Assembly: GCA_964649615.1 (NCBI GenBank)
Contig: CAZYPW010000005.1
Coordinates: 41,387 to 94,124 of the forward strand
DNA: 52,738 nucleotides
Source: an uncultured Gammaproteobacteria bacterium
Lineage (GTDB): Bacteria; Patescibacteriota; Microgenomatia; Daviesbacterales; UBA10151
Reading direction: 5' to 3'
Shown here in pieces: positions 1 to 48,930 of the stretch; within the stretch, counting starts at the first letter, position 1; each line of letters begins with the position of its first letter. Below the pieces are notes generated by a model, which saw only the letters and a program-made list of their open reading frames with translations, had not been told where the DNA came from and did no database searches. Position numbers and translations under genes: made by a program.

Positions 1-2110
1 AATCCAGGATGGAGGCAGAGGAGACATTTAAGGATGAACCTATTCCTACATTACCTGTTAAATCTGAGAATCCATTAACCCTTAGACCACCTTGGGCAAA
101 GCTTAACCCTGATACATTAAGGGAGGCCCCTATTCCTGTATTTCCAGCAAGGTTTGATATGCCAGATACATTTAAGGTTGACAGTGCTGCTGCTGAGGTG
201 ACAGTTAAGGATTGTCCTATCCCTACATTACCAGAGACATTTAAACTACTGCCTATTCCCACAAAATCAGAAAAGTATCCTGTACCATTAACTCTTAAGT
301 TATAATCAGGCAAGGTGGTTCCTATCCCTACATTACCATTTGAGTCTATCCTTAATCTGTCTGCTCCTCCTGTTGCAAAACTTAACAAATTATCTCCTGG
401 CCTGTAAATACCTGTGTCTGTATCATTGATGAAAGCCAGGGCTGGAGAAGAGGCTGATCCATCAGGCAAAAGAAGGGATGAGGTAGAGGTAGTTGATCCA
501 TCTACTGTTAAGGTTCCAGTAATCCTGGTATTACCCCAGACATCTAATTTATTAGAAGAGGTAGTAGCCCCCAGCCCTAAATTTCCTGCTGAGGTTACAA
601 AGAGCCCATTAGCACCTGAATTAATTTGTAGTTGAGTATCAGGAGAAGTAGTCCCAATTCCTACTCTGTTATTTGAGCTGTCTACAAACAAAGTATTGGT
701 ATCTATGGTGGTATCACCTGATACAGTTAAGGTGGAAGATAATGTGGTGGCACCAGTAATTCCCAGTGTTCCACCTATGGTAGCATTACTGGTAATATTT
801 CCAGTCCCTACTACATGAAGCTTAGTTGATGGGGAAATAGTTCCTAACCCCACATTACCAGATGCATCAATGGTAATGCCTTGTCCTGCAGTACCTCCAG
901 TGATTAAGGCTATGTTGTTTGCTCCAATTCGATATAGTCCGCTGTCAGTATCATCTGTAAAAGCTAACCCTGGAGCAGAAGCTGTACCATCTGAAATCAG
1001 CACTACTCCTGAAAAAGAAGGGGAGGATTTGGCAGAAAGAGTGATAGATCCTCCAAGTGAGACTGTGCCACCGCCTGTTAAATTAGTCCCTGCTGTAACG
1101 GTTACAGCAGAATTTGACAGAGCAGAGTTAGGGATATTAGTGAAGGTATTAGCACTTCCTGAGAGAGATTTATTAGTTAAGGTTTGGGTGGTATCAGTTC
1201 CAACCAGGGTGGTTGTTGCTCCTGGCAGGGTAAACTGAAACCCTCCAGATGTAATCTGAGCGTTGCTAGCAGACAAAGTTAAAGAAGAAAAAGTTGGAGA
1301 AGAAGTAGTTGATACATTTTGATCTAATGTAGCATTATTTGTTACTGTTAATGTGGTATCTCCAGAGGTAGCAATGATGTTTGAGGAGGAAGGAGTAGCT
1401 TCTAACTTCAAGTTATTTATTAACCCAGTTACAAAAAGTGAGCTATTTATTTGGGTATCAGTATTTACTTCTAAAAACTGAGAACTGGCTGTTTCAGCCA
1501 GGACATCTGAATCGTTTATCGTTAATTGTTTATCGTTAATCGGTAATGGGGGTGGGGGATCAGGTTTAAGATCAAGGGGGATGAAACCCAGCTCCTCTGC
1601 TTTCTTAGGACTAATTATCCCAATACTATCCTGAGCTAGTTTATCTAAAGGAGCAAGAAGAGCTGAAGCTATATTTCCCTTCATGAATTGTTTGGTAGTA
1701 TCAGGAGAAGTTAGGTAGGAAGCTACAATTCCTGCAACAGTTATTAAAACAAGAGAAGAGAAAACTCCTCCTGTTATGAGGAAATTAGTAAGAAAAGTTT
1801 TTTTGACGATAGATGGTAGAGGATTGATAGTGGATAGATCTTCTACTTCTATATTCCATTTTCTACCATCTATTGGCTGCTCTTCTGTTTTCTTTAATAG
1901 CTCCTCAGTAGTTTGGACTCTAGCTTGATGGTCTGCAACTGATTTTGGATTAATTGCACTTAGAGAATCTAGTGAATATAGCCTGGTACCACCTGGAGTT
2001 CTAATAGCAGTAATCTTGCCAGCTCTTTCCCATCTTCTTAAGGTATCAATGGAGACTTTAAGTATCTTGGAAGCTTGGCCTATTTTAACAAAATCAGACG
2101 GTTTTTGCAT
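1..2110 (-). CDS. Large membrane-anchored surface/tail-fibre-like repeat protein with N-terminal MerR/excisionase-type HTH; runs off the window (3' partial)
   Basis: Hand translation from ATG 2110 stays open to base 1: MQKPSDFVKIGQASKILKVSIDTLRRWERAGKITAIRTPGGTRLY (HTH), a hydrophobic segment, then many G-N-V-G-I-G repeats. Absent from the ORF track because its stop is outside the window. Confidence 0.85.
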   Translation of the reverse strand, partial: MQKPSDFVKIGQASKILKVSIDTLRRWERAGKITAIRTPGGTRLYSLDSLSAINPKSVADHQARVQTTEELLKKTEEQPIDGRKWNIEVEDLSTINPLPSIVKKTFLTNFLITGGVFSSLVLITVAGIVASYLTSPDTTKQFMKGNIASALLAPLDKLAQDSIGIISPKKAEELGFIPLDLKPDPPPPLPINDKQLTINDSDVLAETASSQFLEVNTDTQINSSLFVTGLINNLKLEATPSSSNIIATSGDTTLTVTNNATLDQNVSTTSSPTFSSLTLSASNAQITSGGFQFTLPGATTTLVGTDTTQTLTNKSLSGSANTFTNIPNSALSNSAVTVTAGTNLTGGGTVSLGGSITLSAKSSPSFSGVVLISDGTASAPGLAFTDDTDSGLYRIGANNIALITGGTAGQGITIDASGNVGLGTISPSTKLHVVGTGNITSNATIGGTLGITGATTLSSTLTVSGDTTIDTNTLFVDSSNNRVGIGTTSPDTQLQINSGANGLFVTSAGNLGLGATTSSNKLDVWGNTRITGTLTVDGSTTSTSSLLLPDGSASSPALAFINDTDTGIYRPGDNLLSFATGGADRLRIDSNGNVGIGTTLPDYNLRVNGTGYFSDFVGIGSSLNVSGNVGIGQSLTVTSAAALSTLNVSGISNLAGNTGIGASLNVSGLSFAQGGLRVNGFSDLTGNVGIGSSLNVSSASILD

Positions 2111-2214
2111 AGATTCTAAGGTGGGAGCCGTCTGTCCCCCTAAAATCTATGCAAATCTGCTTATTGTGCATAGATTCTTAATCCATCGTACATAGATCTG
2201 CATAGATTTGTCAA
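2104..2214 (-). promoter_or_regulatory. Sigma70-like promoter with repeated TGCATAGATT boxes
   Basis: Minus strand TTGACA (2209-2214), 18 bp, TACGAT (2185-2190); TGCATAGATT at 2106, 2167, 2199, variant at 2189, inverted copy 2144-2153. Confidence 0.6.
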
Positions 2215-2242
2215 GGGGTTATTATAATAGTAAAGGGAGAAT

Positions 2243-2332
2243 TTAAAGTTCAAAATTCAAAATGCAAAATGACAATTAAAAATTTAAAATTTTAAACTGC
2301 AACTTTTAACTTTTCATTTTACACTTTTAACT
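2243..2332. repeat. Heptamer-repeat palindrome after atpC
   Basis: ttaaagttcaaaattcaaaatgcaaaat ... aacttttaacttttcattttacacttttaac; overlaps the atpC stop. Confidence 0.8.
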
Positions 2333-2595
2333 TGTTCTTGGGGCTGAATATAAGTATAAATATCTACTTTATTTTGCTGGACATAGATGATGGCTACTGG
2401 AAATTTAAAGGTTAAAGCTTTTTGGCCTTTAATCCTGATAATAATTGGTTGGTTTTCAATCACAGTGATAAAATTGGCGTGTTCAGATAAGATATCAAAA
2501 GAACCCTGGGAGTTCTTGGAAGAAACCGAATCTGCATTTGTATCAAGAATGAGCTGTTGGGGAGAGATGATACGGACATGTAAGGTTTGATTCAT
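2314..2595 (-). CDS. atpC: F1 ATPase epsilon subunit (N-terminal domain only)
   Basis: LHVRIISP...VSSKNSQGSFDILSEHANFIT matches the epsilon beta-sandwich; last gene of the atp operon. Confidence 0.8.
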   Translation of the reverse strand: MNQTLHVRIISPQQLILDTNADSVSSKNSQGSFDILSEHANFITVIENQPIIIRIKGQKALTFKFPVAIIYVQQNKVDIYTYIQPQEQVKSVK

Positions 2596-2676
2596 AATTC
2601 AAAACTCAAAAATCAAAAGTCAAAAGTTCAAGTAAAAAGACTAAAAGTTTTTACTTTTTAACTTTTACCTTTTAAC
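2596..2676. repeat. Heptamer-repeat palindrome filling the atpD-atpC gap
   Basis: aattcaaaactcaaaaatcaaaagtcaaaag ... tttttactttttaacttttaccttttaac. Confidence 0.85.
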
Positions 2677-4109
<1,433 letters not shown>

Positions 4110-4949
4110 TTATTGCATCCCTCCTTTCCTGCTAGATAAAGATCCGGCATAATTTTCCAAAATTTGGTTATTAATTAAGCTTCTTTTTAAGTAAGCCTTA
4201 ATTTTTTGGGATTCTTTAATAAACTTATTAGCTTCTGTTTCTGCCTGATCCATGGAAATAAACCTGGAGGCAGTCCTGGAAACCTCAGATTCTAAAAAAG
4301 TTTCTTCCAAAAGCAGGGTTAGAATTTGATTATCAAAAAAATCTAATACTTTGCTAAGTTCTGGTTCAAAGATGAATTTAATTTTTTCTTCCTCTTTTGA
4401 GCTAGCTGGGATTTGAGCCACTTTAGCAATATCTGTATAGGTGGGATCTTGGATTAATAAGGTTCTCAGCTTAGAAAAAAAGATTAGCACTTGGTTGTAA
4501 TTTTTTAAACTGGCTACCAAAGCAGTTAGCTCAGAGGCATTAGGCTGGTCTTTGGCTAGAATAACTTCCTGAAGTGATCCAAAATCTTTACTTTTCCTAA
4601 AATAAGCTTGGGCTGTTTTGCCAATAATAATTCTATCTGTTTTAAGTTCTTTGGTTTTTTCAATGTAATAATCTATTAAATCAGAATTAATATCACCATA
4701 AAATCTATAATTAGAAGTGATAATGATGCTTAAGGTTTGGGTGGGTTTGGAGATGCTGATATTGCGCTTTAGGGCTAAAGCCCGAATCAAGCTAAAAACC
4801 TGGGAGATTTCTTGAAAAAACTCCCTGTTTCTTTCCAGGTTTACCCTTAAGAGTTTGATTTTTTGGTTGGCAATTTCAGAATAGGCCTGCGCTACCATTT
4901 TAAATGAATAACCCTCTTCAATTAATTGGTCAACTTCTTTAATAGTCAT
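4110..4949 (-). CDS. atpG: F1 ATPase gamma subunit (divergent)
   Basis: Position between alpha and beta; IITSNYRFYGDINS, FIFEPEL, SRTASRFISMDQAETEA motifs. Confidence 0.85.
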   Translation of the reverse strand: MTIKEVDQLIEEGYSFKMVAQAYSEIANQKIKLLRVNLERNREFFQEISQVFSLIRALALKRNISISKPTQTLSIIITSNYRFYGDINSDLIDYYIEKTKELKTDRIIIGKTAQAYFRKSKDFGSLQEVILAKDQPNASELTALVASLKNYNQVLIFFSKLRTLLIQDPTYTDIAKVAQIPASSKEEEKIKFIFEPELSKVLDFFDNQILTLLLEETFLESEVSRTASRFISMDQAETEANKFIKESQKIKAYLKRSLINNQILENYAGSLSSRKGGMQ

Positions 4950-4954
4950 TAATT

Positions 4955-5369
4955 AATCTCAAATCTGAGATCTTAAATGTCAAATCTACATCTAAAATCT
5001 CAAAACTTCTTCCTCCCTTTTAAAGTTAATACACTTGATCCTAACATATTGCTTATTTCGTTAGCCTCTAAGAGTAATTCCGCACATTCTGTTTTTAAAT
5101 TAGGATAAGAATCTCTCAATAGACAAATCCAATACTTAGTCTCATTAGCAGATTTTAAATCTATTTCATAAAATTTGATGAAATCTTTCCTGCTTGAAGC
5201 TGCTTGAGCTTCTATCATATTTGCTCCAATAGACCAGAAAGCCCTTTTATCAGGTAAATTATTCACAAAACTAATAATCTCTAAAGAAAATCTATAAGCA
5301 CGTAACTTTACATCATTAGATTTTAGATTTGAATTGTAGTTTTGCGTTTTGCGTTTTGAGTTTTGAGAT
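4955..5369 (-). mobile_element. Putative full mini-element: heptamer arms (4955-5008, 5321-5369) enclosing a four-helix-bundle gene
   Basis: Arms match the two halves of ORF-less palindromes at 43363-43465, 48829-48930 and 30366-30474; mobility is inferred. Confidence 0.6.
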
Positions 5370-5374
5370 ATCAT
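5000..5374 (-). CDS. Four helix bundle protein (TIGR02436 / 23S rRNA IVP family), probably internally deleted
   Basis: SIGANMIEAQAASSRKDFIKFYEIDLKSANETKYW family motif; ATG 5374 overlaps the atpA stop (ATGA). Confidence 0.85.
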   Translation of the reverse strand: MISQNSKRKTQNYNSNLKSNDVKLRAYRFSLEIISFVNNLPDKRAFWSIGANMIEAQAASSRKDFIKFYEIDLKSANETKYWICLLRDSYPNLKTECAELLLEANEISNMLGSSVLTLKGRKKF

Positions 5375-7990: not shown

Positions 7991-8004
7991 GATTTGATAA
8001 TAGC

Positions 8005-8077
8005 AAGTTTAAAGTGTAAAATGCAAAGTGTAAAATAACAAGGTAAATATTAAAAATTTTGATTTTTGATTTTTGAT

Positions 8078-8080
<3 letters not shown>
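8005..8080. repeat. Heptamer-repeat palindrome upstream of atpF
   Basis: aagtttaaagtgtaaaatgcaaagtgtaaaat ... aattttgatttttgatttttgattt. Confidence 0.8.
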
Positions 8081-8950
<870 letters not shown>

Positions 8951-9016
8951 CTACTTTTATATCAATAGCTCAAAATATATAAAAGCTCATCAATATAATT
9001 ACCGCAGGAGCTTAAG

Positions 9017-9050
9017 TTAGGGGTATAGGGTATAGGGTTAGGATTTAGGC
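9017..9050. repeat. Heptamer tandem repeat (TAGGGTA)
   Basis: gttagggtatagggtatagggttaggatttagg. Confidence 0.65.
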
Positions 9051-9129
9051 TGGATCAGAATATATATTAAGTATATCAATTATAACTAAGATGAATTTCA
9101 ATTAGCTTGTGAAAAGAAGGTGTGAAACG

Positions 9130-9232
9130 GTATTAGGTAGTATATATTAAGTATTATGGGAAGATAAGATTTAAACCTTTTAGACGAAGTCGCAAGCTTC
9201 GCTTAATACCTAATACTTGATACTTAATACTT
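9130..9232. repeat. Heptamer palindrome (AGTATTA/TAATACT) enclosing a 42-bp dispersed repeat
   Basis: gtattagg..attaagtatta ... taatacctaatacttgatacttaatact; 9168-9209 matches 26625-26666 at 40/42. Confidence 0.75.
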
Positions 9233-9278
9233 GTTCAGTAGATTGAACGAGCTCGTATCTTATGCTAAGATCGAAGTT

Positions 9279-11819
9279 ATGAAGAAGTATATACCTAACC
9301 AAATTGAGCCTAAATGGCAGAAAAAGTGGAGAGAAGGTGCTCTCTATTTAACCAATTTATCCAAAAATGATAATAAATATTATGTTTTAGTTGAGCTGCC
9401 TTATACTTCGGGGGATCTTCATATGGGGCACTGGTTTACCTTCACCATGGGTGATATCTTGGCTAGATTCAAAAAAAGACAGGGGTTCAATGTGCTTTTC
9501 CCGATCGGATTTGATGCATTTGGCTTGCCAGCAGAGAATGCTGCAATTAAGCAAAACATTCATCCAAGAGACTGGACTTATGGCAATATTGAGCGTATGA
9601 GAACTCAATTTGAAACTTTAGGAGCCTCGATGGATTGGACTAAAACCATGGTGGCTTGTGATCCTAAATACTACAAATGGAATCAATGGATCTTCTTAAA
9701 GATGCTAGAGCAGGGTAGCACTTATAGAGGTAGAGCGCTATCAAACTGGTGTCCTAACTGCCAGACAGTACTGGCCAATGAGAATGTAGAATTAGGCAGA
9801 TGCTGGAGGTGCGGCACAGAGGTAATTACCAAAGAAATAGAACAGTGGTTTTTTAAGATCACAGACTATGCCGAAAAATTACTTTGGCCAGAATCACCAA
9901 AAGTAGATTGGCCCAAGCATTTAAGAGAAGGTCAAAATAATTGGATAGGTAAGTCAGAAGGTGTAATTTATCGTTTCAAAGTAAAAGATATGAATATTTA
10001 CTTTGAAATGTTTGATTCTGTGCCCCAAACATTTATGGCTCAAACGTTTACAGTTATTGCTCCTGAACATCCTAAACTCTACGAGTTAGTAAAAGGCACT
10101 AAATACGAGAAAAAAGTGATGAATTTTGTCGACAAGATCAGAAGAAAGAAAGCTGCTGATAAATTTGAAGCCGATAAGGAAGTGGAAGGCGTATTTACCG
10201 GTAGGTATATAGAATATACTCCAACAGGACAGAATATTCCTTTGTGGGTAGCGTCGTTCGTTATAGCCGAATATGGTACAGGAGTTGTTAATTCCAGTGC
10301 ACACGACGAGCGTGATTTTGCCTTTGCCAAAAAGTATGACTTGCCACTGCATCCGGTTATGTTTCCGTCTGATCCAGTTGAGGCCAAGAAGGTCAGAAAT
10401 TTGGAATATTGTTACCATCATGCACCAGATGGTATCTTGCAAGAACCGGCAGAATTTAAAGGTAGAAAATGGGCAGGAGTAAGAGCAGACATTATTGATT
10501 ATATTGAAAAAAAAGGCTTTGGCAAAAGGGCCATCCAGTATCATCTTCACGATTGGTCAATCTCTAGACAAAGATATTGGGGGACACCCATTCCCATTAT
10601 TTATTGTGATAAGTGTGGGACAGTACCTGTGCCGGAAAAAGATTTACCAGTGGAGCTGCCTTATAAGGTTGACTATGCTCCCCAAGGTAAGCCCCCTCTG
10701 GCTACGGCAGAGGATTGGGTGAATGTAGAGTGCCCTAAGTGTGGTGGGCCAGCCAAAAGAGAAGTGGAAACTATGGATACTTTTGTTGATTCAGCCTGGT
10801 ACTTCTTTAGGTATTTAGATCCTGAAAATGATCAACAGATCTTTGATAAAAAGGTAGTAAAAGATTGGATGCCACTAGAGATCTATATTGGGGGGCCGGA
10901 ACATACCTTGGGACATGCCTTGTATTCCAGATTCTTTACCATGATCTTTCATGATTTAGGACTGATTAATTTTGATGAGTATGCTAAAAAGAGGATACAC
11001 CACGGTACAATTTTAGGTCCTGATGGCTCTAGAATGAGCAAGTCCAGAGGGAATGTGGTTAATCCTGATGAGGAGGTTAAAAATTATGGGGCAGATGCTA
11101 TCAGAGTTTATCTGATGTTTTTAGGCCCTTTTGACATTGTTACTTCTTGGAACCCCAATGGTGTCAATGGTGCCTATCATTTCCTACAACGTGTTTGGTC
11201 TCTCCGTGACAAATTACTTCCGATTGGACGTGGGCTCATCGCCCAAGAAAGTAGTTTGTCACAAGCTGACCTGAAAATGATACACAAGACTATTAAGAAG
11301 GTGACAGAAGATATTGAGGGACTTAAATACAACACAGCTATTGCCTCCCTCATGGAGTGGTTGAATCATTTATCTAAAAAAGAATCTATCAGTAAAGAAG
11401 AATATAAAACATTTTTATTACTACTTGCCCCATTCTCGCCCCATATTACAGAGGAACTGTGGGAAATTGTTAATCGTGAATCGTCTATCGTATATCGGAA
11501 AAATAAAAACGATAAGCAAAGCTTGCGATCTAACGATCTAAAACGACAAACGATAAACGACAAACGAAATTGGTCTATACATAAGCAGTTGTGGCCACAG
11601 TTTGATAAAAAATATCTGGAAGAAGAGGAGATAGTTATCATAGTTCAGATTAATGGTAAGGTGAGAGACAGCATCATGATACAAAAAGATATAATAAATA
11701 ACAAAGAGGATATAGAAAAATTTGCCAAACAAGCTGCAAATGCTAAGAAGTACTTAGCAGGAAAAACTGTGAAAAAAGTTGTGTATGTAGAAGGTAAGGT
11801 AATAAATTTTGTTATTTAG
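9279..11819 (+). CDS. leuS: Leucine--tRNA ligase
   Basis: HMGH and RMSKS motifs, zinc knuckles, editing-domain HDERD; ATG 9279 preferred. Confidence 0.97.
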   Translation: MKKYIPNQIEPKWQKKWREGALYLTNLSKNDNKYYVLVELPYTSGDLHMGHWFTFTMGDILARFKKRQGFNVLFPIGFDAFGLPAENAAIKQNIHPRDWTYGNIERMRTQFETLGASMDWTKTMVACDPKYYKWNQWIFLKMLEQGSTYRGRALSNWCPNCQTVLANENVELGRCWRCGTEVITKEIEQWFFKITDYAEKLLWPESPKVDWPKHLREGQNNWIGKSEGVIYRFKVKDMNIYFEMFDSVPQTFMAQTFTVIAPEHPKLYELVKGTKYEKKVMNFVDKIRRKKAADKFEADKEVEGVFTGRYIEYTPTGQNIPLWVASFVIAEYGTGVVNSSAHDERDFAFAKKYDLPLHPVMFPSDPVEAKKVRNLEYCYHHAPDGILQEPAEFKGRKWAGVRADIIDYIEKKGFGKRAIQYHLHDWSISRQRYWGTPIPIIYCDKCGTVPVPEKDLPVELPYKVDYAPQGKPPLATAEDWVNVECPKCGGPAKREVETMDTFVDSAWYFFRYLDPENDQQIFDKKVVKDWMPLEIYIGGPEHTLGHALYSRFFTMIFHDLGLINFDEYAKKRIHHGTILGPDGSRMSKSRGNVVNPDEEVKNYGADAIRVYLMFLGPFDIVTSWNPNGVNGAYHFLQRVWSLRDKLLPIGRGLIAQESSLSQADLKMIHKTIKKVTEDIEGLKYNTAIASLMEWLNHLSKKESISKEEYKTFLLLLAPFSPHITEELWEIVNRESSIVYRKNKNDKQSLRSNDLKRQTINDKRNWSIHKQLWPQFDKKYLEEEEIVIIVQINGKVRDSIMIQKDIINNKEDIEKFAKQAANAKKYLAGKTVKKVVYVEGKVINFVI
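11471..11568. repeat. In-frame heptamer palindrome inside leuS
   Basis: taatcgtgaatcgtctatcgtatatcgg ... aaacgacaaacgataaacgacaaacga. Confidence 0.85.
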
Positions 11820-14466: not shown

Positions 14467-14580
14467 TTTTAAATTTTCAATTTTAAATTCACAATGAATT
14501 TTCAATGATTCAATGTTTGAAAATTAATACATTGATATTTGATTGTAAATTGTAAATTGTAAATTGGTAATTGTAAATTT
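14465..14580. repeat. Heptamer palindrome between comEC and argS
   Basis: aattttcaattttaaattcacaatgaattttcaat ... attgtaaattgtaaattgtaaattggtaattgtaaatt. Confidence 0.8.
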
Positions 14581-14596
14581 ATGTTATTATTAACTT

Positions 14597-21605: not shown

Positions 21606-21722
21606 TAGATGGTAGAGAATAGAAAATAGTGGTAGAAGGTAGAAAGTGGAAGTTAGAGATAATCTATCATCCAGCTTCTATCTTCAAAGTACTATCTTCC
21701 ATTTTCCATCATCTATCGTCTA
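21606..21722. repeat. Heptamer palindrome (ATGGTAG/CTATCTT family)
   Basis: atagatggtagagaatagaaaatagtggtagaagg ... ctatcttccattttccatcatctatcgtc. Confidence 0.8.
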
Positions 21723-26900: not shown

Positions 26901-26984
26901 AATTAGTTATGAGTTCATAGTACGCTTCGCTTGTAGTTCATAGAAAATTTCTACGAACTAATAACTACCAACTAAGAACTAATC
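26901..26984. repeat. Heptamer palindrome (TAGTTAT/AACTAAT)
   Basis: aattagttatgagttcatag ... cgaactaataactaccaactaagaactaat. Confidence 0.75.
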
Positions 26985-30474: not shown

Positions 30475-30476
30475 TA

Positions 30477-43353: not shown

Positions 43354-43362
43354 AATATAAAT

Positions 43363-43465
43363 AATCTCAAATCTGAGATCTTAAATCGCAAATCTACATC
43401 TTAAATCTCAAAACTTTTAAGATTTGAGTTGTAGTTTTGACATTTGACATTTGAGTTTTGAGATT
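43363..43465. repeat. Empty copy of the four-helix-bundle-flanking palindrome
   Basis: 43363-43416 matches 4955-5008 at 51/54; the remainder resembles 5321-5369. Confidence 0.9.
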
Positions 43466-43468
43466 CCT

Positions 43469-44167
43469 TCATATCTTCTGCACTTGCAGAAAATCTAGTT
43501 CCACTGGTGTTTCCCTTCCAAAGATAGATACCAAAACCTTAACTTTGCCTTTTTCCGCGTCTACATTATCAACTTTGCCAATAAATTCTGCAAAAGGCCC
43601 ATCAACAATTTTAACAGTATCTGAAACTGTGAAGACTTGTTTGTAAGTGGGAGCTTCTTCTTTGGTAAATCTGACAATAGTTTGTACTTCTGCTTCAGAA
43701 ATAGGGGTAGGTTTATTGCCAATTCCCACAAAGCTAGTTACTCCCTGGGTAGTTCTAACAGCTAGCCAGGAAGCATCATCCAAGACCATTTTGACTAAAA
43801 TATAGCCTGGGAAGATTTTTTCTTTAATATTTAATTTTTTGCCGCCTTTGATCTCAATTTTATCCTGGGTAGGGACTAAGACATCCAAAATCTTCTCTTC
43901 CAAATGTTCAGATTCAATCCTTTGTTTTAAAGCTGTAGCTACTCTATTTTCATGGCCTGAGTAAGTATGGACTACATACCATCTAGCATTAGGGTTGTCA
44001 TTTTTGACGGTAGAAGATGGAGGATTGATAATAGAATCTTGAAGATCGATGGTAGAGGATGGATTTTCTTGGTCTATCTCTCTATTTTCCATCTTCAAAG
44101 TACTATCTTCCATCTTTCCACCATCTATTTCTATCTGTTCTTCTGTTTTTACTTTATTATCTTCCAT
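43469..44167 (-). CDS. nusG: NusG with repeat-derived N-terminal extension
   Basis: WYVVHTYSGHE, FPGYILV, KOW VKIVDGPF, FGRETPVEL. Confidence 0.96.
   Translation of the reverse strand: MEDNKVKTEEQIEIDGGKMEDSTLKMENREIDQENPSSTIDLQDSIINPPSSTVKNDNPNARWYVVHTYSGHENRVATALKQRIESEHLEEKILDVLVPTQDKIEIKGGKKLNIKEKIFPGYILVKMVLDDASWLAVRTTQGVTSFVGIGNKPTPISEAEVQTIVRFTKEEAPTYKQVFTVSDTVKIVDGPFAEFIGKVDNVDAEKGKVKVLVSIFGRETPVELDFLQVQKI
44006..44135. repeat. In-frame heptamer palindrome in the nusG N-terminus
   Basis: Shares an exact 23-mer (44091-44113) with 21680-21702. Confidence 0.85.
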
Positions 44168-44846: not shown

Positions 44847-47215
44847 TTTGAGCTGGGTTGTTGGTTTTGGGCTTGTTGGGCTGAAGGGGTGGCTAATGAT
44901 GAGAAAGGGTCAGTAAAAAAAGTTTGCCCATCTTTTTGAGTATACCTTACTAAGGATTTGCTTTCTGAATCAGTGATCACTAAATCTTTTCTTCCATCCA
45001 CCCTAGCTTCTATTATTCCCACAGGTAAGGCTAAAGGTTTATTTGGTTTATCCTTAAGCACTAAAGCCATAATTTCCTTCCAAATAGGAGCAGCTCCTGT
45101 GACCCCAGAAGTTAAAGCTTGCCTCATGGGAGAATTATCATTATTGCCCACCCAGGTTCCCACTACAAAATCCTCTGTATATCCAAAAGTCCAATTATCC
45201 CTTTTTAAATCTGTGGTGCCTGTTTTCACAGAGACAGTTTTATCTTTAATCAGAAGCTGAGAATTAGGACCAAAAGCAGGGGTACGGGCAGCGTTATCAG
45301 CCAGGATATGGCTGATTAAGTAAGCAATTTGAGGGGAAATAGCCTGTTTGTGTTGGTTTTGGGCTTCATCAATAATATTGCCATTGCCGTCTACTATTTT
45401 TAAAATTGGGTTAATATCTACTCTTTTACCAAGGTTAGCAAGAGTTCCATACATGGTAATCATGTCTACCATTTTGACCTCTGCCCCTCCCAAAGTTAAA
45501 GATAACCCATACCTCTCTGGCTGCGTAAAGGTGGTAATACCCATATCTTGGGCTGTTTCTATAATAGCAGGGATGCCCACTGTGGCAGCCAGCTTAACTG
45601 CAGGCATATTGAATGATGCAGCTAAAGCAGTCCTTAAACTAACAGCCCCATGGAATTTACCGTCATAATTGACAGGAGAATATGAGGCTCCCCAAGGATT
45701 CTTAAAGCTAGTTGGTACATCTAAGATAGTATTTCCAGGAGAATAGCCTTGTTTGAAAGCAGTGGCATAAGTCACAGGCTTAATTGAGGAACCTGGTTGC
45801 CTTAGGGCTGTGGTGACATTATATGATCCAGAAATAGGATCATGGTAATTTTTAGACCCTACCATAGCCAGTATTTGCCCGCTTTTTGGATCTGTGACCA
45901 TAGCAGCCCCATTTCTGACATTTAATGCTCCCAGTTTAATCACTTCCTCATAAACAATTCTTTCCACCTCCTCTTGCAGGCTTAAATCCAAAGAAGTATA
46001 AACCTTCAAGCCTCCTTGAGAAACTACTCTGGGGCCGAATTTTGCGGAAAGCAGATCTTTAACATACATCACAAAATGGGGGGCTTTGATATTATTAACA
46101 GGAGGTTTAATATGCAACTGCTGTGAATAAGCCTCATCTGCTTGAGCTGAAGTAATATATTTCTCCTTCACCATCCTGTCTAAAACCCATCTTTGCCTCA
46201 GTTTTGCCAGCTCAGGATTTTCCCCATATGGAGAAAATTGGGTGGGAGAAGCAGGCAGGCCTGCTAAAAAAGCAGCCTGGGCTAAAGTTAACTCGCCTAC
46301 TTTCCTGCCAAAATAGGTTTCTGAAGCAGCCTCAATTCCCCAGGCTGTGCCCCCATAAGGCACTTCATTTAGATACATTTGCAGTATTTCTGCCTTGGCA
46401 TATAATCTCTCAGCCCATAAAGACAGGATGATCTCTTTTATTTTCCTGATATAAGTTTTCTCAGGAGTGAGCAGGGTATTTTTAATCAGCTGTTGGGTGA
46501 GAGTAGAAGCTCCTTCTTGTTGGCCATACCTTAAATTTACATAAGCTGCCCTGAGAATAGCTAAAAAATCCACCCCAGGGTGGGAGTAAAAATTCTGGTC
46601 TTCAGAAGCCAAAGTAGCCTGGATTAAATATGAAGGCACCTCGCTCAAGTTGATTAAAGTCCTATTCCTGCCTTCATAAATTCTATATAACAGCTTTCCT
46701 TCTCTATCATAAAATTCTGTAGTTAAAGGCTGAATGGGGTTTTTTAATCTCTCAGGAGATGGCAGCTCTGCCCCTAAAGAAAAGGCAGATTGGGTATAAA
46801 GATAGATTAGAGTAAGAATAATCACAAATTTAAGGGTAAATCTGGCTGGTTTGGGCAAAAGGAGATTAAAAGCTGCTTTAGCTTTTTTAATATAAAAAGG
46901 AATAAAGGGAGTAGTTCTGGGCCTGCCTTTACTCCGTTTTAAGCGGGGTAGTTTAAAGTGAAAAGTGAAAAGTGAAAAGTTAGGAATAGTTGGCTGCCTA
47001 GACTTTCTAGATTTAGATCTTGATTTAGACATTATCTTCGCGGTCGAGAATATAATGGTAGAAGTGAGTTCAGCTAAATCTTTTAGGGCATAGAAAAATT
47101 GTTTAACAATCCAAAAAGGGATTTGCCCTACCTTAATCAGGATAATTTGAACCAAAAGGAGGCCAAAAAAGGGGAGGGTAGGTTTTAAGTTTTGGCTCTT
47201 TTTCCGTCTTGGCAT
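44843..47215 (-). CDS. Class A penicillin-binding protein (transglycosylase + transpeptidase)
   Basis: ASEDQNFYSH, GASTLTQQL, RKIKE, QPGSSIKP, SFN, KTGT. Confidence 0.93.
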   Translation of the reverse strand: MPRRKKSQNLKPTLPFFGLLLVQIILIKVGQIPFWIVKQFFYALKDLAELTSTIIFSTAKIMSKSRSKSRKSRQPTIPNFSLFTFHFKLPRLKRSKGRPRTTPFIPFYIKKAKAAFNLLLPKPARFTLKFVIILTLIYLYTQSAFSLGAELPSPERLKNPIQPLTTEFYDREGKLLYRIYEGRNRTLINLSEVPSYLIQATLASEDQNFYSHPGVDFLAILRAAYVNLRYGQQEGASTLTQQLIKNTLLTPEKTYIRKIKEIILSLWAERLYAKAEILQMYLNEVPYGGTAWGIEAASETYFGRKVGELTLAQAAFLAGLPASPTQFSPYGENPELAKLRQRWVLDRMVKEKYITSAQADEAYSQQLHIKPPVNNIKAPHFVMYVKDLLSAKFGPRVVSQGGLKVYTSLDLSLQEEVERIVYEEVIKLGALNVRNGAAMVTDPKSGQILAMVGSKNYHDPISGSYNVTTALRQPGSSIKPVTYATAFKQGYSPGNTILDVPTSFKNPWGASYSPVNYDGKFHGAVSLRTALAASFNMPAVKLAATVGIPAIIETAQDMGITTFTQPERYGLSLTLGGAEVKMVDMITMYGTLANLGKRVDINPILKIVDGNGNIIDEAQNQHKQAISPQIAYLISHILADNAARTPAFGPNSQLLIKDKTVSVKTGTTDLKRDNWTFGYTEDFVVGTWVGNNDNSPMRQALTSGVTGAAPIWKEIMALVLKDKPNKPLALPVGIIEARVDGRKDLVITDSESKSLVRYTQKDGQTFFTDPFSSLATPSAQQAQNQQPSSN

Positions 47216-47377: not shown

Positions 47378-47385
47378 TATGCTAT

Positions 47386-47970
47386 ATGACATTTGCTAAA
47401 GAAGCTTTAATAGATTATTTTGCAAAGCCTGAGCGCCTAACTAATGCTGTTTTTCTTGTGAGTGCTATTAGTAGTATGGGAGTAGCTTTATTGATGATAG
47501 TTTCTTCCCTGGCAGCTCAAGAGGCTGCTTCAAAAAAATATCTTCAAGAATGGTCCTCAAGATTAAATAGCCAGTTAGCAGGCCGCTTTCCATTAGGTGA
47601 AGCAGAAGCAAGATATAACGAGTTAATTGTTACCAGTGCTGCTCCTACTTGGGTTGAGAAATTAGAAGCAGATAGACAAAGAGAGCCTGTTAATGTGAGA
47701 AATTATGCTGGCACTTATCTTCCTAATGGTGTTGGTACTAGTGTTATAGGCGAAATTACACCAGGTTCTAAAATAACAGGTGCGGTCTGGACTTGGGGAC
47801 CTATGCCTTATTCTCCTGCAAAAGGAAGATGGGCAGCTTTTAGGTGTAAAAATGCTCAAGGTGTAGCTTGGAGACCTGAAGTAGTAGGAAATCTGGATGA
47901 GAGAGTTTGTGCCATCTTTGGTGATTATTTAAGAGTTCCTACACCAGCAGATAAAGCCCCCAAAAGATAA
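47386..47970 (+). CDS. Hypothetical membrane-anchored protein
   Basis: 194-aa ORF with one TM and its own promoter. Confidence 0.6.
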   Translation: MTFAKEALIDYFAKPERLTNAVFLVSAISSMGVALLMIVSSLAAQEAASKKYLQEWSSRLNSQLAGRFPLGEAEARYNELIVTSAAPTWVEKLEADRQREPVNVRNYAGTYLPNGVGTSVIGEITPGSKITGAVWTWGPMPYSPAKGRWAAFRCKNAQGVAWRPEVVGNLDERVCAIFGDYLRVPTPADKAPKR

Positions 47971-48823
47971 GAGTAATTCCTAAAAATTTAGTAAATAAAC
48001 TGATCACATTTTTATCCACGCTAAATACAGTTGGATATTTTTTAGATAAAAACAAGGCTAAAATAAATAAAAAGACGTATTGAGTGCCTTGTAAAGAGTT
48101 TACTAAAGCAGGAGAACCTAAAGAAATAGCAAAGAAAATTAATAGTTGAGAAATCCCTGCTACAGTTTGCCCAAAGATAAATAGGGGACCACCTCTTTGA
48201 AACATAGAAATACCACTCTTTTGAGTTGGTAAAATTTTATTCCTTAGATTAGGTAGTAATAATATAGTTATTCCTATAGGAATGAGTACAAATCTTGACC
48301 AAACTAAGACAGTCACCACATCCATCTTTAAATATGCTTCTTTTAGAATTAAATAGGAAAAGGCAAAAAAGGAGGCTGAAACAATCTCAAAAATCAGTTC
48401 CTGCCTGGATAGCTTACCTTGCCAATCAGTTAAAGTAATAAATAGCATCCCTAAAAGTAAAGCTAAAATAGCCCAAATTTGATTTTGGGTAATTGTTTGT
48501 CCCCATAAAGCTATCACAAATAAAATTAAAGGATTTAAAGTTCCAATAATAGGAATAACTCTGGCAAGAGAACCCACTTTTAATGCTTTGAACATAAAAT
48601 AAGCTCCCATAGTCCAAAGAAGGGTGGAGATTGAGGCTAAAATAAAGACTTCTGGGGTGGGAGTTTTCGTAAAAGGGATAGCAAAAACTGCTAAACAACT
48701 GATTAGGCTAAAATAAAAAACATAAAGCAGGGGATCTGGGATAACTTTAGTTAATAGGAATTTATCAACTGTTACAGCTATGCCGTTTAAGATGAAAGCA
48801 AGGATGGAAATTGGTAAATACAT
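47939..48823 (-). CDS. EamA/DMT family transporter
   Basis: About 10 TM helices; ALVNSLQGTQYVFLFILA. Confidence 0.8.
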   Translation of the reverse strand: MYLPISILAFILNGIAVTVDKFLLTKVIPDPLLYVFYFSLISCLAVFAIPFTKTPTPEVFILASISTLLWTMGAYFMFKALKVGSLARVIPIIGTLNPLILFVIALWGQTITQNQIWAILALLLGMLFITLTDWQGKLSRQELIFEIVSASFFAFSYLILKEAYLKMDVVTVLVWSRFVLIPIGITILLLPNLRNKILPTQKSGISMFQRGGPLFIFGQTVAGISQLLIFFAISLGSPALVNSLQGTQYVFLFILALFLSKKYPTVFSVDKNVISLFTKFLGITLIFWGLYLLV

Positions 48824-48828
48824 AATTT

Positions 48829-48930
48829 AATCTCAAAACTCAAATCGCAAAACGCAAATCTGAATCTTAAATCTTAAAAACTTTTTAGATTTGAATTGTA
48901 GTTTTGACATATGGCATTTAAGTTTTGAGT
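48829..48930. repeat. Empty copy of the four-helix-bundle-flanking palindrome
   Basis: 48883-48906 is identical to 5321-5344 (24 nt). Confidence 0.9.

Follow-up and report, generated by a model that had tools for sequence, protein, structure and literature searches.

Heptamer-repeat palindromes of a Candidatus Daviesbacteria genome and their association with a four-helix-bundle gene

Proteins of the TIGR02436/PF05635 family, known as '23S rRNA intervening-sequence proteins', are homologous to Avd, the accessory protein of DGRs. The stems of intervening sequences (IVSs), like Correia MITEs, are substrates of RNase III (PMC10969869). No published link between the TIGR02436/PF05635 family and heptamer repeats was found. 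Here we describe such a link in a 52,738-nt stretch of DNA (the window) from a metagenome-assembled genome (MAG) of Candidatus Daviesbacteria, a small groundwater bacterium and no cyanobacterium. The window holds one full-length copy, in which a gene of this family lies between heptamer arms (4955-5370), together with ∼25 gene-less or one-armed copies belonging to several families (Table 1). The first-pass annotation's pointer to four-helix-bundle genes was thus apt.

Period-7 arrays and their sequence families

The first-pass annotation had proposed one heptamer-palindrome design across the window, to be judged by its excess over shuffled sequence. That excess is real and non-random: a lag-7 self-match scan (at least 17 of 21 matches) returned 26 strict segments (929 bp) against 0.0 in 20 composition-preserving shuffles. 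The enrichment is confined to period 7, lags 4-6 and 8-12 giving 0-1 segments in the same scan, and Tandem Repeats Finder reports dozens of period-7 or period-14 arrays within 1510-48878. The element catalogue comprises 27 segments and 2,074 bp (3.9% of the window); elements make up 17% of the window's 6.0 kb of intergenic DNA, and about half of element DNA is coding, in frame in leuS, GT4, wecG, nusG, rplJ and PBP1A. Most arrays have an inverted partner with which they form a hairpin, the best inverted architecture being that at 43363-43465 (51-nt arms, 1 nt between); arrays at 1510, 21631, 25195, 26951 and 30780 have no second arm. In 13 of 16 heptamer loci folded, hairpin energy gave z ≤ -3 relative to shuffles on at least one strand (lowest z, -11.8).

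All eight unit types reported in the first-pass annotation are present at the places given for them, but they represent fewer families, since TCAAAAN, CAAAACT and AAAGTNN are two arms or rotations of a single CAAA/TTTG family. Several seemingly non-complementary arm pairs are joined by G.U wobble pairing on one strand. The CAAA family is multi-copy in the window (84-94% identity) and the TAGAGTA pair is 88% identical; identity between unlinked copies, 84-94%, extends across 54-110 nt, and copies have non-periodic features in common: a CTACAAC/GTTGTAG centre, A-rich loops and a AAGTTTTGA junction. Copies of some families in other species are ∼90% identical, although the host proteins are only ∼50-60% identical.

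Table 1. Heptamer-repeat features of the window; units are listed at the end.
Position	Strand	Feature	Context and properties
1510..1547		one-armed [AATCGTT]x5 array	in MerR-HTH ORF (2-2107, minus); translated ..LPINDKQLTINDSD..
1805..1878		GATGG(T/A)AGAGGATTGA-family hairpin	in MerR-HTH ORF; z -6.7
2240..2336	minus	CAAA/AAAGT-type hairpin	at and just past atpC 3' end
2588..2680	minus	CAAA/AAAGT-type hairpin	fills atpD–atpC spacer
4050..4112	minus	CAAA/AAAGT-type hairpin	fills atpG–atpD spacer; folding -16.1 vs 0.0
4955-5370	minus	full-length element	two inverted heptamer arms enclosing helix-bundle gene, between atpA and atpG
4955..5008	minus	3' arm	[NTTTGNN] heptamers on sense strand; 94% identical to 43363-43416
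5003..5374	minus	124-aa four-helix-bundle gene	TIGR02436/PF05635, 23S rRNA IVS protein family, Avd-like
5316..5370	minus	5' arm	[NNCAAAN] heptamers coding for helix-bundle N-terminus
7995..8086		CAAA/AAAGT-type element	spacer before atpF; orientation opposite to other atp-operon copies
8822..8914		[AGTTGGT]x3/[AACTAAT] hairpin, A-rich loop	N-terminal hydrophobic leader of protein 8078-8914 (minus)
9015..9092		[GGGTATA] array and partial hairpin	divergent intergenic region; weak structure, z -1.8
9202..9233		[CTTAATA]x4 array	adjoins leuS start codon
11464..11572		[AATCGTN]/[AAACGAN] hairpin	in frame in leuS, after ITEELW motif
14460..14582	plus	[AATTTTA]/[ATTGTAA] hairpin	fills comEC-like–argS spacer
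21631..21657		one-armed [GGTAGAA] array	just 5' of homology-supported PEGA-domain gene start
22866..22957	plus	AAAGT/TTTGA-type hairpin	PEGA–mreB spacer; sense strand far more stable, -25.3 vs -10.9
24618..24712		[TCAAAAN]x4 ... [AACTAAT]x2.5	in GT4
24800..24897		TAGAGTA-type hairpin, A-rich loop	in-frame 22-30-aa insertion, GT4 inter-domain linker
25195..25229		one-armed [AAAGGGT/AAAGCGG]x5 array	in GT4 (MERVKGKAERVK)
25722..25806		second TAGAGTA-type hairpin	in frame in wecG/tagA; 88% identical to 24800-24897
26951..26982		one-armed [AACTAAT/ACCAACT] array	between two convergent genes
30276..30340		8-9-nt period repeats of TCTGANNN	low-complexity N-terminal extension of L7/L12
30366..30477	minus	gene-less CAAA-family hairpin	rplJ–rplL spacer
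30777..30817		[CATCTTC/CACCTTC]x4 array	in rplJ (..VPSSTFHLPPSSLEG..)
43361..43467	minus	best-formed gene-less CAAA-family hairpin	nusG–rplK spacer; 51-nt arms, z -8.4
44010..44098		GAAGATGGAGGATTGA-type hairpin	in nusG N-terminal extension
46948..47035		[AAAGTGA]x4 and [AGATCTA] repeats	PBP1A N-terminal tail (..SKSRSKSRKSR..FSLFTFHFKL..); weak hairpin
48826..48932	minus	gene-less CAAA-family hairpin	EamA–GH1 spacer
1510 and 11469-11570		AATCGTT/AACGAT units
1809 and 44013		GATGGTAG units
2240, 2588, 4050, 24621, 30366, 43363, 48829		TCAAAAN/CAAAACT units
8887 and 24685		AACTAAT units
9202		CTTAATA unit
14542		ATTGTAA unit
24804 and 25727		TAGAGTA units

As first annotated, the elements have invaded both housekeeping operons (the atp, rplJ–rplL and nusG–rplK spacers) and essential genes; the genes that contain them are leuS, nusG, rplJ, rplL, wecG/tagA and those of the GT4 glycosyltransferase, PBP1A and MerR-HTH protein. 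Copies persist where they are tolerated: in intercistronic spacers, just 3' of a stop codon and upstream of promoters or ribosome-binding sites, and, within proteins, in surface loops, linkers and termini. Those inside proteins are translated in frame, with units mutated exactly at would-be stop codons, and host ORFs are intact and called as such in public annotation. Both TAGAGTA copies, for example, read SIEY(K/R)VSSI..HYTLYTIP in one frame, and in each the third unit has TCG or TCA at the very position of a would-be in-frame TAG; this peptide has no other match among 5.8 billion proteins. Independent short-read assemblies break within elements (one contig within 14460..14582, and two that terminate within 48826..48932), which we count as support for a multi-copy state in the genome.

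The gene-bearing form and its relatives in other phyla

The full-length design, of ∼400-420 bp, consists of a ∼120-aa four-helix-bundle gene enclosed by two inverted arms, each of 5-8 units of 7 nt in tandem (8 nt in some subfamilies); the start codon falls within the 5' arm, the stop codon within the 3' arm. In the window copy the ATG and the stop codon of atpA overlap (ATGA), and the gene's own stop codon (AAGTTTTGA) falls in the first unit of the 3' arm. The ORF scores 53.7 bits against PF05635 (cut-off 33.8) and 63.2 bits against TIGR02436 (cut-off 24), and matches PDB 2RLD (E = 2e-10); confidence in the modelled protein structure is low (pLDDT 61). Three gene-less hairpins match the full-length arms (94% over 54 nt, 88% over 77 nt and 84% over 74 nt), and the junction at the stop codon is kept in gene-less copies, including that at 43361..43467. 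None of the 12 sister genomes compared has the gene in its atpA–atpG spacer.

The association of gene and repeats extends well beyond the window. Around 53 metagenomic homologues, strict period-7 arrays occur at 5.3/kb beside the gene and at 0.21/kb elsewhere in the same loci, a 25-fold difference. The arms of these homologues fold at -36 to -39 kcal/mol (shuffled, -21) and co-vary at the level of the unit (CAAAG/CTTTG, rho 0.55; CAAAT/ATTTG, rho 0.49); the observed match of arm profiles was reached in 0 of 5000 permutations. More distant homologues have other 7- or 8-nt units. We also inspected 16 plasmid-borne homologues, largely cyanobacterial (Nostoc, Trichormus, Scytonema, Geminocystis, Stanieria, Pseudanabaena, Picosynechococcus and Leptolyngbya), with further hosts in Riemerella, Azospirillum and Gemmatirosa: most have 7-8-nt repeat arms, and in the eight with 10-kb context arrays occur at 2.8/kb beside the gene against 0.08/kb elsewhere. 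The association is seen in cyanobacteria and four other phyla too; across more than 70 loci in six phyla the helix-bundle gene is the sole gene found between the arms, and its start and stop codons are embedded in them.

Gene-bearing copies have arms that match gene-less hairpins in the two families detailed, CAAA in the window and GTCGTCA in the sister genome L003. The latter carries a second subfamily of the gene, flanked by AGTCGTC/GTCTGAN arms, and gene-less hairpins of this type in leuS and in the atpA–atpG, atpG–atpD and atpF–atpH spacers; its leuS insert encodes KKSLIADS, and the C-terminus of its helix-bundle protein is KSLKADS*. For most window families (TAGAGTA, AATCGTN, ATTGTAA, AGTTGGT and GATGGTAG) no cognate gene was found in the data searched.

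Empty sites and turnover

Gain and loss of elements are fast relative to species divergence. The first-pass annotation had asked whether all copies are fixed across relatives; orthologous sites are often empty, so they are not. The leuS site (11464..11572) is empty (21 nt) in seven sister genomes; in L003, L006, L007, L008 and L017 it is occupied by heptamer hairpins, related or different, and in L005 by a non-heptamer palindrome. Of 14 sister genomes, 12 have an atpG–atpD spacer of 0-30 nt. Taken together, many Daviesbacteria lack an element at the leuS site and in five spacers, where others carry different families, which indicates high turnover, and what is present or absent is whole blocks of 90-120 nt. 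The GT4 insertion at 24800..24897 is missing in six syntenic orthologues, and 48 of 120 orthologues have some insert at the same point. The leuS elements of L003 and L017 are 87% identical, the flanking DNA 61-73% and LeuRS 56% (amino acids).

Origin of the elements

The heptamer palindromes probably constitute a superfamily of small invasive hairpin elements, some bearing a gene and the others derived from these by its loss. The first-pass annotation had instead invoked a generative mechanism producing unrelated units. It was right that this is no single transposon family, several families sharing one design, but individual families are multi-copy and the two detailed include a gene-bearing copy with matching arms, so that a superfamily explains the shared architecture better. 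Internal deletion of the gene would give the 60-130 bp gene-less hairpins, and their further decay the one-armed arrays. The protein may recognise the periodic units in the arms of its own element, perhaps with one protomer of an Avd-like oligomer per unit, which would confer specificity of propagation; the chemistry could be supplied by host replication, recombination or reverse-transcription functions. Mobility, like this role for the protein, is inferred. No transposase, integrase or reverse transcriptase is encoded in the window, and no transposition event, target-site duplication or catalytic protein was identified. Also counted against the superfamily are that the 52.7 kb and its ∼17 kb flanks contain only one helix-bundle gene, that most window families lack a cognate gene in the data searched, and that the TAGAGTA peptide is otherwise unmatched.

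An origin as classical MITEs, deletion derivatives of an insertion sequence located elsewhere and served by its transposase in trans, with the helix-bundle gene a passenger, would fit the small size, terminal inverted arms, multi-copy and assembly-breaking nature and variable presence at orthologous sites. It is nevertheless very unlikely: there is no transposase in the window or the 17 kb flanks, a crude and uninformative search saw no target-site duplications, the arms are periodic along their full length rather than merely repeated at the termini, and no other gene lies between arms at the >70 loci. The gene could also be a passenger homing into the loops of pre-existing hairpins. That the repeats arise from assembly or binning is barely credible: the DNA comes from a MAG, and short-read assemblies are indeed broken by repeats, but wherever assemblies made independently from other sequencing runs extend across elements the identity is 100%, dozens of unrelated MAGs show the same architecture, as do finished cyanobacterial plasmids, and host ORFs remain in frame. 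Host-selected regulatory RNA, whether RNase III processing sites, REP/BIME-like mRNA stabilisers or terminators, setting the stoichiometry of subunits from the atp and ribosomal-protein operons, and repetitive through repeated recruitment, is quite improbable as the origin. Hairpins do fill the atp, rplJ–rplL and nusG–rplK intercistronic spacers, those at 4050, 2240 and 22866 fold far better in the sense strand via G.U pairs (2240..2336 folds only as minus-strand, sense RNA; -21.6 vs -4.6 kcal/mol), and, as noted, RNase III has the related IVS stems and Correia MITEs among its substrates. However, in most sister genomes these spacers are empty (0-30 nt), and in others their occupants are unrelated families, so that no site has a conserved function tied to it; half of element DNA is in coding sequence; the sense-strand bias is not replicated in sister genomes (5 sense, 13 antisense); elements coincide with 0 of 5 terminator-like sites (shuffles give 6.5); and there is no Rfam match. 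Some copies may have acquired a secondary host use.

Local microsatellites, grown by slippage in place from chance seeds (Phe-Lys TTCAAAG) without movement, the inversion and the gene being incidental, are an unlikely source of the repeats as a whole. Slippage makes neither a reverse-complement array 20-60 nt away nor a shared centre, A-rich loops and AAGTTTTGA junction, and it does not account for the identity between unlinked loci, for families more identical in other species than the genes flanking them, for the presence or absence of whole blocks or for the 25-fold enrichment beside helix-bundle genes. On its side are the one-armed arrays, the sole enrichment of period 7, as if one slippage register were favoured, and arrays of different heptamers in GT4 and rplJ segments whose length is conserved among orthologues. 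The GT4 array at 25195..25229 has orthologues of equal length, with [TTCAAAG]x5 in L005 and L006 (five perfect units in L006, where the window has AAAGGGT units) and decayed forms in L004 and L014; at 24618..24712 orthologue segment length is nearly conserved, with other heptamers in other species; and the array at 30777..30817 sits within a single unbroken L10 Pfam-domain match (residues 3-98). Insertion alone leaves these arrays (25195, 24621 and rplJ) unexplained, which we count against the superfamily of elements, and their conserved length favours homogenisation in place, by slippage or conversion, over simple insertion. Some coding arrays therefore seem to have been re-homogenised in place with length unchanged, a local process on top of the elements; to this extent the 'generative' idea survives, though not as an anonymous generator of unrelated units.

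The repeats at 30276..30340 represent a related phenomenon, though not of period 7.

Heptamer hairpins and a gene-bearing copy in the window

The first-pass annotation had claimed that palindromes built of heptamer repeats are scattered across the whole window, and these palindromes are real. A self-match scan, which demands the same base one lag further downstream at 17 or more of 21 positions, yielded 26 segments (929 bp) at lag 7, compared with 0.0 in 20 composition-preserving shuffles; lags 4–6 and 8–12 gave 0–1 segments each, and the excess is thus specific to period 7. Tandem Repeats Finder returned dozens of arrays of period 7, 14 or 21 between positions 1510 and 48878. Most arrays have an inverted partner ∼20–60 nt away, and 13 of the 16 heptamer loci that were folded form hairpins with an energy z of −3 or lower relative to shuffles on at least one strand (strongest z = −11.8). 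The complete catalogue holds 27 segments that together span 2,074 bp. They make up 3.9% of the window and occupy 17% of the 6.0 kb of DNA between its genes; in a segment of a streamlined CPR genome this points to a recent repeat invasion. Half of all element bases lie in coding sequence.

The genes among which the elements are found include an F-type ATP synthase operon, leuS, argS and mreB, a GT4 glycosyltransferase gene, wecG/tagA, rplJ-rplL, nusG-rplK-rplA, and genes for a sigma-70 factor and PBP1A; the public annotation used for comparison was that of GCA_016176385.1, contig JACOXE010000005.1. In gene order, leuS and its surroundings match MAGs of Candidatus Daviesbacteria (Patescibacteria/CPR), which also supply the nearest relatives of LeuRS (57–79% identity to the LeuRS of comparison loci L001–L011). 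A cyanobacterial origin, suggested by the heptamers together with one HIP1 site, was rejected, since GCGATCGC occurs just once in the window and the close relatives of LeuRS, Atp and MreB all belong to Daviesbacteria or Patescibacteria. In a set of 80 LeuRS loci, those from Patescibacteria frequently have strict period-7 arrays (0.9–5.3 per 10 kb); such arrays are rare in Firmicutes, Chloroflexota, Bacteroidota and other LeuRS loci, most of which have none and a few one. The LeuRS locus of a member of the Thermoanaerobaculia (L065) contains four.

Two readings of the hairpins as familiar RNA structures were weighed. Rfam covariance models at gathering threshold matched two tRNAs in the window and nothing else, so that the elements were rejected as members of a known RNA family; there is no rRNA in the window. 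Intrinsic terminators, with a GC-rich stem and a U tract, were also rejected: none of the five terminator-like sites between 2000 and 9300 overlaps an element, and shuffles give 6.5. Two further candidates were dropped from the catalogue. The region 9005–9245, considered as a single large element, has a fold z of −1.06, which is not significant; and the palindromes near the start of a MerR-HTH gene consist not of heptamers but of four copies of a TGCATAGATT-type motif, which look like operator sites for autoregulation of that gene.

Independent short-read contigs of the same species (Logan) are 100% identical to the window where they overlap it, and they start or end within heptamer elements at 14496 and 48833; evidently the elements are repetitive enough to interrupt an assembly. 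No close strain lacking an element was found among these identical contigs or among GT4 relatives, the best of which reaches at most 69% identity. Practical effects of such elements are broken short-read assemblies, shifted gene-start calls and inflated protein novelty in metagenomic catalogues.

One element carries a gene. It forms a 422-bp insertion between atpA and atpG, a site that is without it in all 12 sister genomes compared, where the spacers measure 0–116 nt. The 124-aa product exceeds the curated cut-offs of two family models, with 53.7 bits for PF05635 ('23S rRNA intervening sequence protein'; cut-off 33.8) and 63.2 bits for TIGR02436 ('four helix bundle protein'; cut-off 24), an assignment with which the public annotation agrees; it also matches a solved member of the family, PDB 2RLD (E = 2e-10). 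Its AlphaFold model, computed from single-sequence input, is all-helical at low confidence (pLDDT 61). Proteins of the PF05635 family resemble Avd, an accessory protein of DGRs (PMC10053308). The gene is framed by two inverted heptamer arms: its start codon lies within the 5′ arm and overlaps the stop codon of atpA (ATGA), and its own stop codon lies within the first unit of the 3′ arm.

Three gene-less hairpins in other spacers closely resemble these arms (see table). At least the best-formed of them, in the nusG|rplK spacer, retains the ..AAAAGTTTTGAG.. junction of the gene-bearing copy, which fits derivatives produced by internal deletion. The TCAAAAN/AACTTTT hairpins of the atp operon and of the PEGA|mreB spacer show the same CAAA/TTTG design, with C-to-U changes in one arm accommodated by G.U pairing.

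Coordinates of features in the window (strand in brackets where assigned)
Feature	Position	Location	Description
Full-length element	4955-5370	atpA|atpG spacer	5′ arm, sense strand: CTCAAAA CTCAAAA CGCAAAA CGCAAAA CTACAAT TCAAATC TAAAATC; 3′ arm, sense strand: AAGTTTTGA GATTTTA GATGTAG ATTTGAC ATTTAAG ATCTCAG ATTTGAG ATT
Helix-bundle ORF	5003-5374 (minus)	within full-length element	
atpG	4110-4949 (minus)		
atpA	5371-6822 (minus)		
Gene-less hairpin	43361-43467	nusG|rplK spacer	94% identical to full-length arms over 54 nt
Gene-less hairpin	48826-48932	EamA|GH1 spacer	88% identical to full-length arms over 77 nt
Gene-less hairpin	30366-30477	rplJ|rplL spacer	84% identical to full-length arms over 74 nt
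AATCGTN hairpin	11464-11572	leuS	
TAGAGTA hairpin	24800-24897	GT4 gene, inter-domain linker	
TAGAGTA hairpin	25722-25806	wecG	
Coding element	8822-8914		encodes hydrophobic N-terminal leader
Coding element		nusG	encodes N-terminal extension
Coding element		PBP1A gene	encodes basic tail
Constant-length array	25195-25229	GT4 gene	AAAGGGT/AAAGCGG, five units
Comparable array	24621-24655	GT4 gene	
rplJ array	30777-30817	rplJ	
8–9-nt repeats	30276-30340	L7/L12 gene	
TGCATAGATT-type motif, two palindromes	2095-2212	just upstream of MerR-HTH ORF start (2107)	
122-aa ORF	870-1238 (plus)		wholly antisense to an open 702-aa MerR-HTH frame
PaaX_M paralogues	12955-13467; 50303-50836		
ArgRS gene	14597-16213		
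L1 ORF	41238-42173		
VapBC-like pair	42206-42885 (plus)	between minus-strand rplA and rplK	

The gene and its arms in other genomes

Scanning metagenome contigs with the window protein gave a set of 80 homologous loci. Nearly all complete ones have a 5′ arm of 5–8 NNCAAAN units that contains the start codon and a 3′ arm of NTTTGNN units that starts at the stop codon, with a CTACAAC/GTTGTAG pair in the centre. Strict period-7 arrays reach a density of 5.30 per kb within ∼110 nt of 53 homologue genes, compared with 0.21 per kb elsewhere in the same loci. When joined, the arms (n = 54) fold at −35.6 kcal/mol (sense) and −38.7 kcal/mol (antisense), compared with −21.1 kcal/mol if each arm is shuffled. 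Because arm offsets differ between copies, covariation was tested at the level of units: with kinship of copies ignored, CAAAG in one arm varies with CTTTG in the other (rho 0.55, p = 8e-4) and CAAAT with ATTTG (rho 0.49, p = 0.004), and the match between the dinucleotide profiles of the two arms, again ignoring kinship, was exceeded by none of 5000 permutations.

Arms of other unit types accompany other members of the gene family. In the sister locus L003 a TIGR02436 gene (E = 6e-37, from a protein HMM run on the sister loci) is inserted between argS and the next gene, and its arms read AGTCATC AGTCATC AGTCGTC AGAC and GTCTGAA AGCTGAT AGCTGAA GACTGAA. Gene-less hairpins of exactly this unit type are found in L003 within leuS and in the atpA|atpG, atpG|atpD and atpF|atpH spacers; the insert in leuS encodes ..KKSLIADS.., and the gene itself ends in ..KSLKADS before its stop codon. 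A second gene of L049 has octamer arms (CCTGATAN), and more distant homologues have arms of AATTTTA type. In the cases examined, gene subfamily and repeat family are cognate.

Homologues are also carried by plasmids. A tblastn search of PLSDB with the L003 protein matched 37 records, mostly from heterocystous cyanobacteria (the classic STRR organisms, STRR being short tandemly repeated repetitive sequences) together with Riemerella, Azospirillum and Gemmatirosa. In most of the 16 plasmid homologues inspected short-period arrays abut the ORF, and they are usually inverted: 5′ AGTCAGG and 3′ CCTGACT units in N. punctiforme, Trichormus and Scytonema; eight GGGAGTA and five TCCCTAC units in N. edaphicum; AAGGGAA and TCCCTTT in Geminocystis; AAGGTTC and GAACCTT in Riemerella; GACAGAG/GACGGAG and CTCTGTC in Azospirillum. 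CTTCTGC/CCTCTGC arrays lie by the gene in Stanieria and Nostoc 7120 and octamers in Picosynechococcus and Gemmatirosa, and Pseudanabaena has direct arrays (14 AAAGCTA and 10 AAAGCCA units). Across eight plasmid loci with 10 kb of context, array density is 2.78 per kb beside the gene versus 0.08 per kb elsewhere. The plasmid genes sit between cistrons (nrdB|nrdA, cas6|cas4 twice, cas10|cmr3) and within conjugation operons. The cas6|cas4 insertions affect two unrelated type I-D loci and the cas10|cmr3 insertion a type III-B locus (cyanobacterial plasmids L165, L176 and L174).

Occupied and empty sites in spacers and genes

The site in leuS that follows the ITEELW motif measures 21 nt and is empty in seven loci (L002, L009, L010, L011, L013, L038 and L058). 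The window has an AATCGTN hairpin at this position and L007 a related one; L003, L008 and L017 have a GTCGTCA hairpin, L006 has five AATGGAA units and L005 a palindrome that is not made of heptamers. The elements of L003 and L017 are 87% identical, compared with 61–73% for the flanking leuS DNA and 56% for the proteins. The atpA|atpG, atpG|atpD, atpF|atpH, c|atpF, comEC|argS and PEGA|mreB spacers display the same patchwork: they measure 0–30 nt in many species, and in others contain hairpins of 80–150 nt from differing families, which in every case lie ahead of the conserved promoter or leader motifs. The GT4 inter-domain linker, home to a TAGAGTA element in the window, has an insert of at least 5 aa in 48 of 120 GT4 orthologues, and the insert of the window is missing in six syntenic orthologues. 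The first-pass annotation had named fixation of all copies across distant relatives, with no empty sites, as a result that would speak against it; the leuS site and the spacers are in fact empty in many relatives, and the refutation thus fails.

Host ORFs with elements keep their reading frames open and are annotated as intact in the public record. Translated repeat-derived segments occur in essential proteins, namely LeuRS, NusG, L10, L7/L12, PBP1A and the cell-wall glycosyltransferases. The TAGAGTA copies in the GT4 gene and wecG are 88% identical and are read in the same frame, giving SIEY(K/R)VSSI..HYTLYTIP, a peptide found in no other protein among 5.8 billion. Since a perfect AGTATAG array reads every trinucleotide once per 21 nt, a TAG stop would be unavoidable; in both copies the third unit reads AGTATCG or AGTATCA, at the very point where GTA-TAG would otherwise arise. 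In all eight coding copies examined for orientation the sense RNA is the less stable strand and the antisense the more stable.

Palindromic families without heptamers are also translated in frame in Patescibacteria proteins (the GT4 orthologue alignment; L005 11993–12124). The peptide VILRSASDEGS is common to the LeuRS of L005 and to a GT4 orthologue (P0117), and inserts of VIPAKAGIH type and of PLARPxRSL..VRSTS type recur at the same hot spots.

Not every array in a gene behaves as an insertion. A 12-aa segment of GT4 is equal in length in all orthologues and differs in content: L008 shares the units of the window, L005 and L006 have five TTCAAAG units (perfect in L006), and in L004 and L014 the array has decayed. 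The situation of a second GT4 array is similar. In rplJ the array falls inside a single continuous match of the window's own L10 to the L10 Pfam domain, which argues against a long insertion there. Simple insertion is no explanation for arrays of constant length; they look as if an old array had evolved in concert, through slippage or conversion, while its length was constrained. The suggestion in the first-pass annotation that a generative mechanism underlies the shared design survives in part, in these same-length arrays of different units; the design itself is better explained by a superfamily of gene-bearing elements with gene-less derivatives.

Relation to known repeat systems

Heptamer tandem repeats of cyanobacteria have been catalogued since about 1990 and are used for strain typing. 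We know of no explanation so far for their origin, and to our knowledge the '23S rRNA intervening-sequence protein' family has been given no function beyond a fold resemblance to Avd. The physical coupling of helix-bundle genes with heptamer repeats, subfamily matching subfamily, in at least six phyla provides a testable common explanation for both, and the occurrence of cyanobacterial homologues in genetically tractable organisms opens a route to experiment. A full-text literature search, of incomplete coverage and thus yielding absence of evidence only, found no paper linking TIGR02436/PF05635 genes to heptamer repeats and no description of heptamer hairpins in CPR genomes.

The window feature is akin to palindromic repeats already known to insert into both spacers and coding sequence, yet it fits none of the closest systems in every defining feature: the host is not a cyanobacterium, the elements do not sit in rRNA, and transposase, RAYT and an RT with a template/variable repeat pair are all absent. 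The STRR sequences of heterocystous cyanobacteria, reportedly described by Mazel et al. in 1990, share the tandem 7-nt units, the several unit families per genome and the mostly intergenic position near gene starts and ends, and in our analysis STRR-like arrays flank TIGR02436 genes on plasmids of Nostoc, Trichormus, Scytonema and Geminocystis. Unlike STRRs, the window arrays belong to a member of the Patescibacteria/CPR, form hairpins as inverted pairs, lie in many cases in frame within essential genes and are tied to a gene. Small dispersed repeats (SDRs) of 21–27 nt nested in the heptamer repeats of Nostoc, said to have been described by Elhai et al. in 2008, have a likeness in very small GC-rich palindromes nested in heptamer arms. 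Such mini-hairpins (GCGAAGCCACGCCAAAGGCGGGCGAAGCG, CCTGCCTGACGGCAGTCAGG) were seen in L003 (12230–12262), L017 (12255–12285), L088, L097, L129 and L131, and are repeated elsewhere in the same loci. The ORF-carrying intervening sequences (IVSs) of 23S rRNA (Leptospira, Coxiella type; PF05635 'S23 ribosomal protein'), reportedly the subject of Ralph and McClelland in 1993, are marked by insertion in a 23S rRNA helix and excision by RNase III. They share with the full-length element the protein family, an ORF in the loop of a long inverted-repeat stem within an essential, highly transcribed unit, and a stem that is a plausible RNase III substrate; in contrast to them, the gene-bearing element lies between atpA and atpG, elements occur between cistrons and within coding sequence rather than in rRNA, their arms consist of periodic heptamers, and copies lacking the gene far outnumber the one that carries it.

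Comparison with other kinds of element leads to similar differences. MITEs resemble the gene-less copies (non-coding hairpins of 60–130 bp with inverted arms, several copies per family) but depend on a parent IS transposase, whereas the helix-bundle gene is the only gene found between such arms, and neither transposase nor integrase nor RT was found in the window ORFs scanned or in ∼17 kb of flanks. REP/REPIN-RAYT systems likewise combine a low-copy gene flanked by palindromic repeats with dispersed gene-less copies, gene subfamily and repeat family being paired one-to-one (PMC3116915). RAYT, however, is a Y1 (IS200-like) nuclease of known chemistry, and REPs are extragenic and without a heptamer period (PMC3116915); the window gene encodes a four-helix bundle with no known catalytic motif and no match to a Y1 transposase family. 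Rickettsia palindromic elements (RPEs) and intragenic MITEs are palindromes in frame in unrelated housekeeping genes, translated in tolerated loops and missing from orthologues (PMC10969869), and the GT4 and leuS elements of the window are in-frame palindromes missing from orthologues in the same way. RPEs differ in having ∼100–150 bp without short tandem units, no associated gene and a different host lineage (PMC10969869); because the tandem-heptamer design differs, homology to RPEs is unlikely. Heptamer direct repeats are also known from Beggiatoaceae and Bacteroidetes, almost exclusively as direct repeats (one inverted set in 170), with translational regulation as the proposed role (MacGregor 2015, PMC4679880). 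Borg tandem repeats, too, evolve fast and create low-complexity protein segments, but are direct, have coding-region units divisible by 3, form no inverted hairpins and have no associated gene (PMC9879509). The resemblance to DGRs lies in the homologous fold family of Avd, a nucleic-acid- and RT-binding oligomer (PMC10053308). The L003 homologue gives a weak Avd match (22 bits, below cut-off) and the window protein none; as against DGRs, there is no RT and no template/variable repeat pair nearby, and unit variation is not concentrated at adenines.

Observation establishes how the elements are built, that gene and arms are cognate, that the elements are multi-copy, that orthologous sites are occupied patchily and that the elements are compatible with translation. 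To account for this we propose that gene-less hairpins would derive from gene-bearing copies by internal deletion, that the helix-bundle protein may be a specificity factor recognising its own periodic arms, that the elements probably spread, or did until recently, within and between genomes, and that selection would filter their survival to spacers and tolerant loops. A crude fold-based test for target-site duplications on 45 gene-bearing elements, whose borders are poorly defined, found no consistent direct repeat at the borders. By analogy with IVS stems and Correia elements (PMC10969869), it is plausible that spacer copies are RNase III substrates. In the window, seven of nine intergenic copies fold more stably as sense RNA. 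This bias did not recur in sister genomes, where 5 intergenic elements favour sense and 13 antisense (18 in all); selection at the RNA level on the sense strand was rejected, and the bias is taken as a local feature only. A wider reading, which we hold possible but somewhat short of probable, is that TIGR02436/PF05635 proteins define a hitherto unrecognised pan-bacterial class of selfish elements in which a protein without transposase would act as specificity or mobility factor for arms of 7–8-nt units, the heptamer repeats of cyanobacteria (STRR), Bacteroidetes, Beggiatoaceae and CPR being such arms or gene-less remnants. If so, these elements would reshape the spacers of operons and supply essential proteins with extra peptide segments.

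Several further features of the window and comparison loci were recorded. ArgRS is 68% identical to that of L002 and ∼30% identical to the ArgRS at the same syntenic position in the other Daviesbacteria, which suggests that a divergent argS has taken the place of the original one. The ribosomal-protein operon contains an inserted VapBC-like pair (MazE-like antitoxin, PIN-domain toxin). Two paralogous PaaX_M (Cas2-like) plus winged-helix proteins are present, and the position of the first is without it in all syntenic relatives except L017. L7/L12 has a low-complexity N-terminal extension of ∼60 aa derived from short repeats, and the L1 ORF would have ∼130 aa ahead of its Pfam domain if begun at a TTG start (the public call is 299 aa). 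The short ORF antisense to the MerR-HTH frame is probably spurious. To the left of the window (L182 17002–20282) a 1,848-aa protein with an intein splicing domain, DUF3800 and a dockerin domain adjoins Kelch-repeat proteins. Outside the window, two strains that are otherwise 100% identical differ by a 44-nt indel (L180 1346–1389 versus L179 8904) at the end of a Gp49/HigB-like gene; it contains a small, perfect palindrome (ACTACGTTCA..TGAACGTAGT) with GTTGAC direct repeats on either side.
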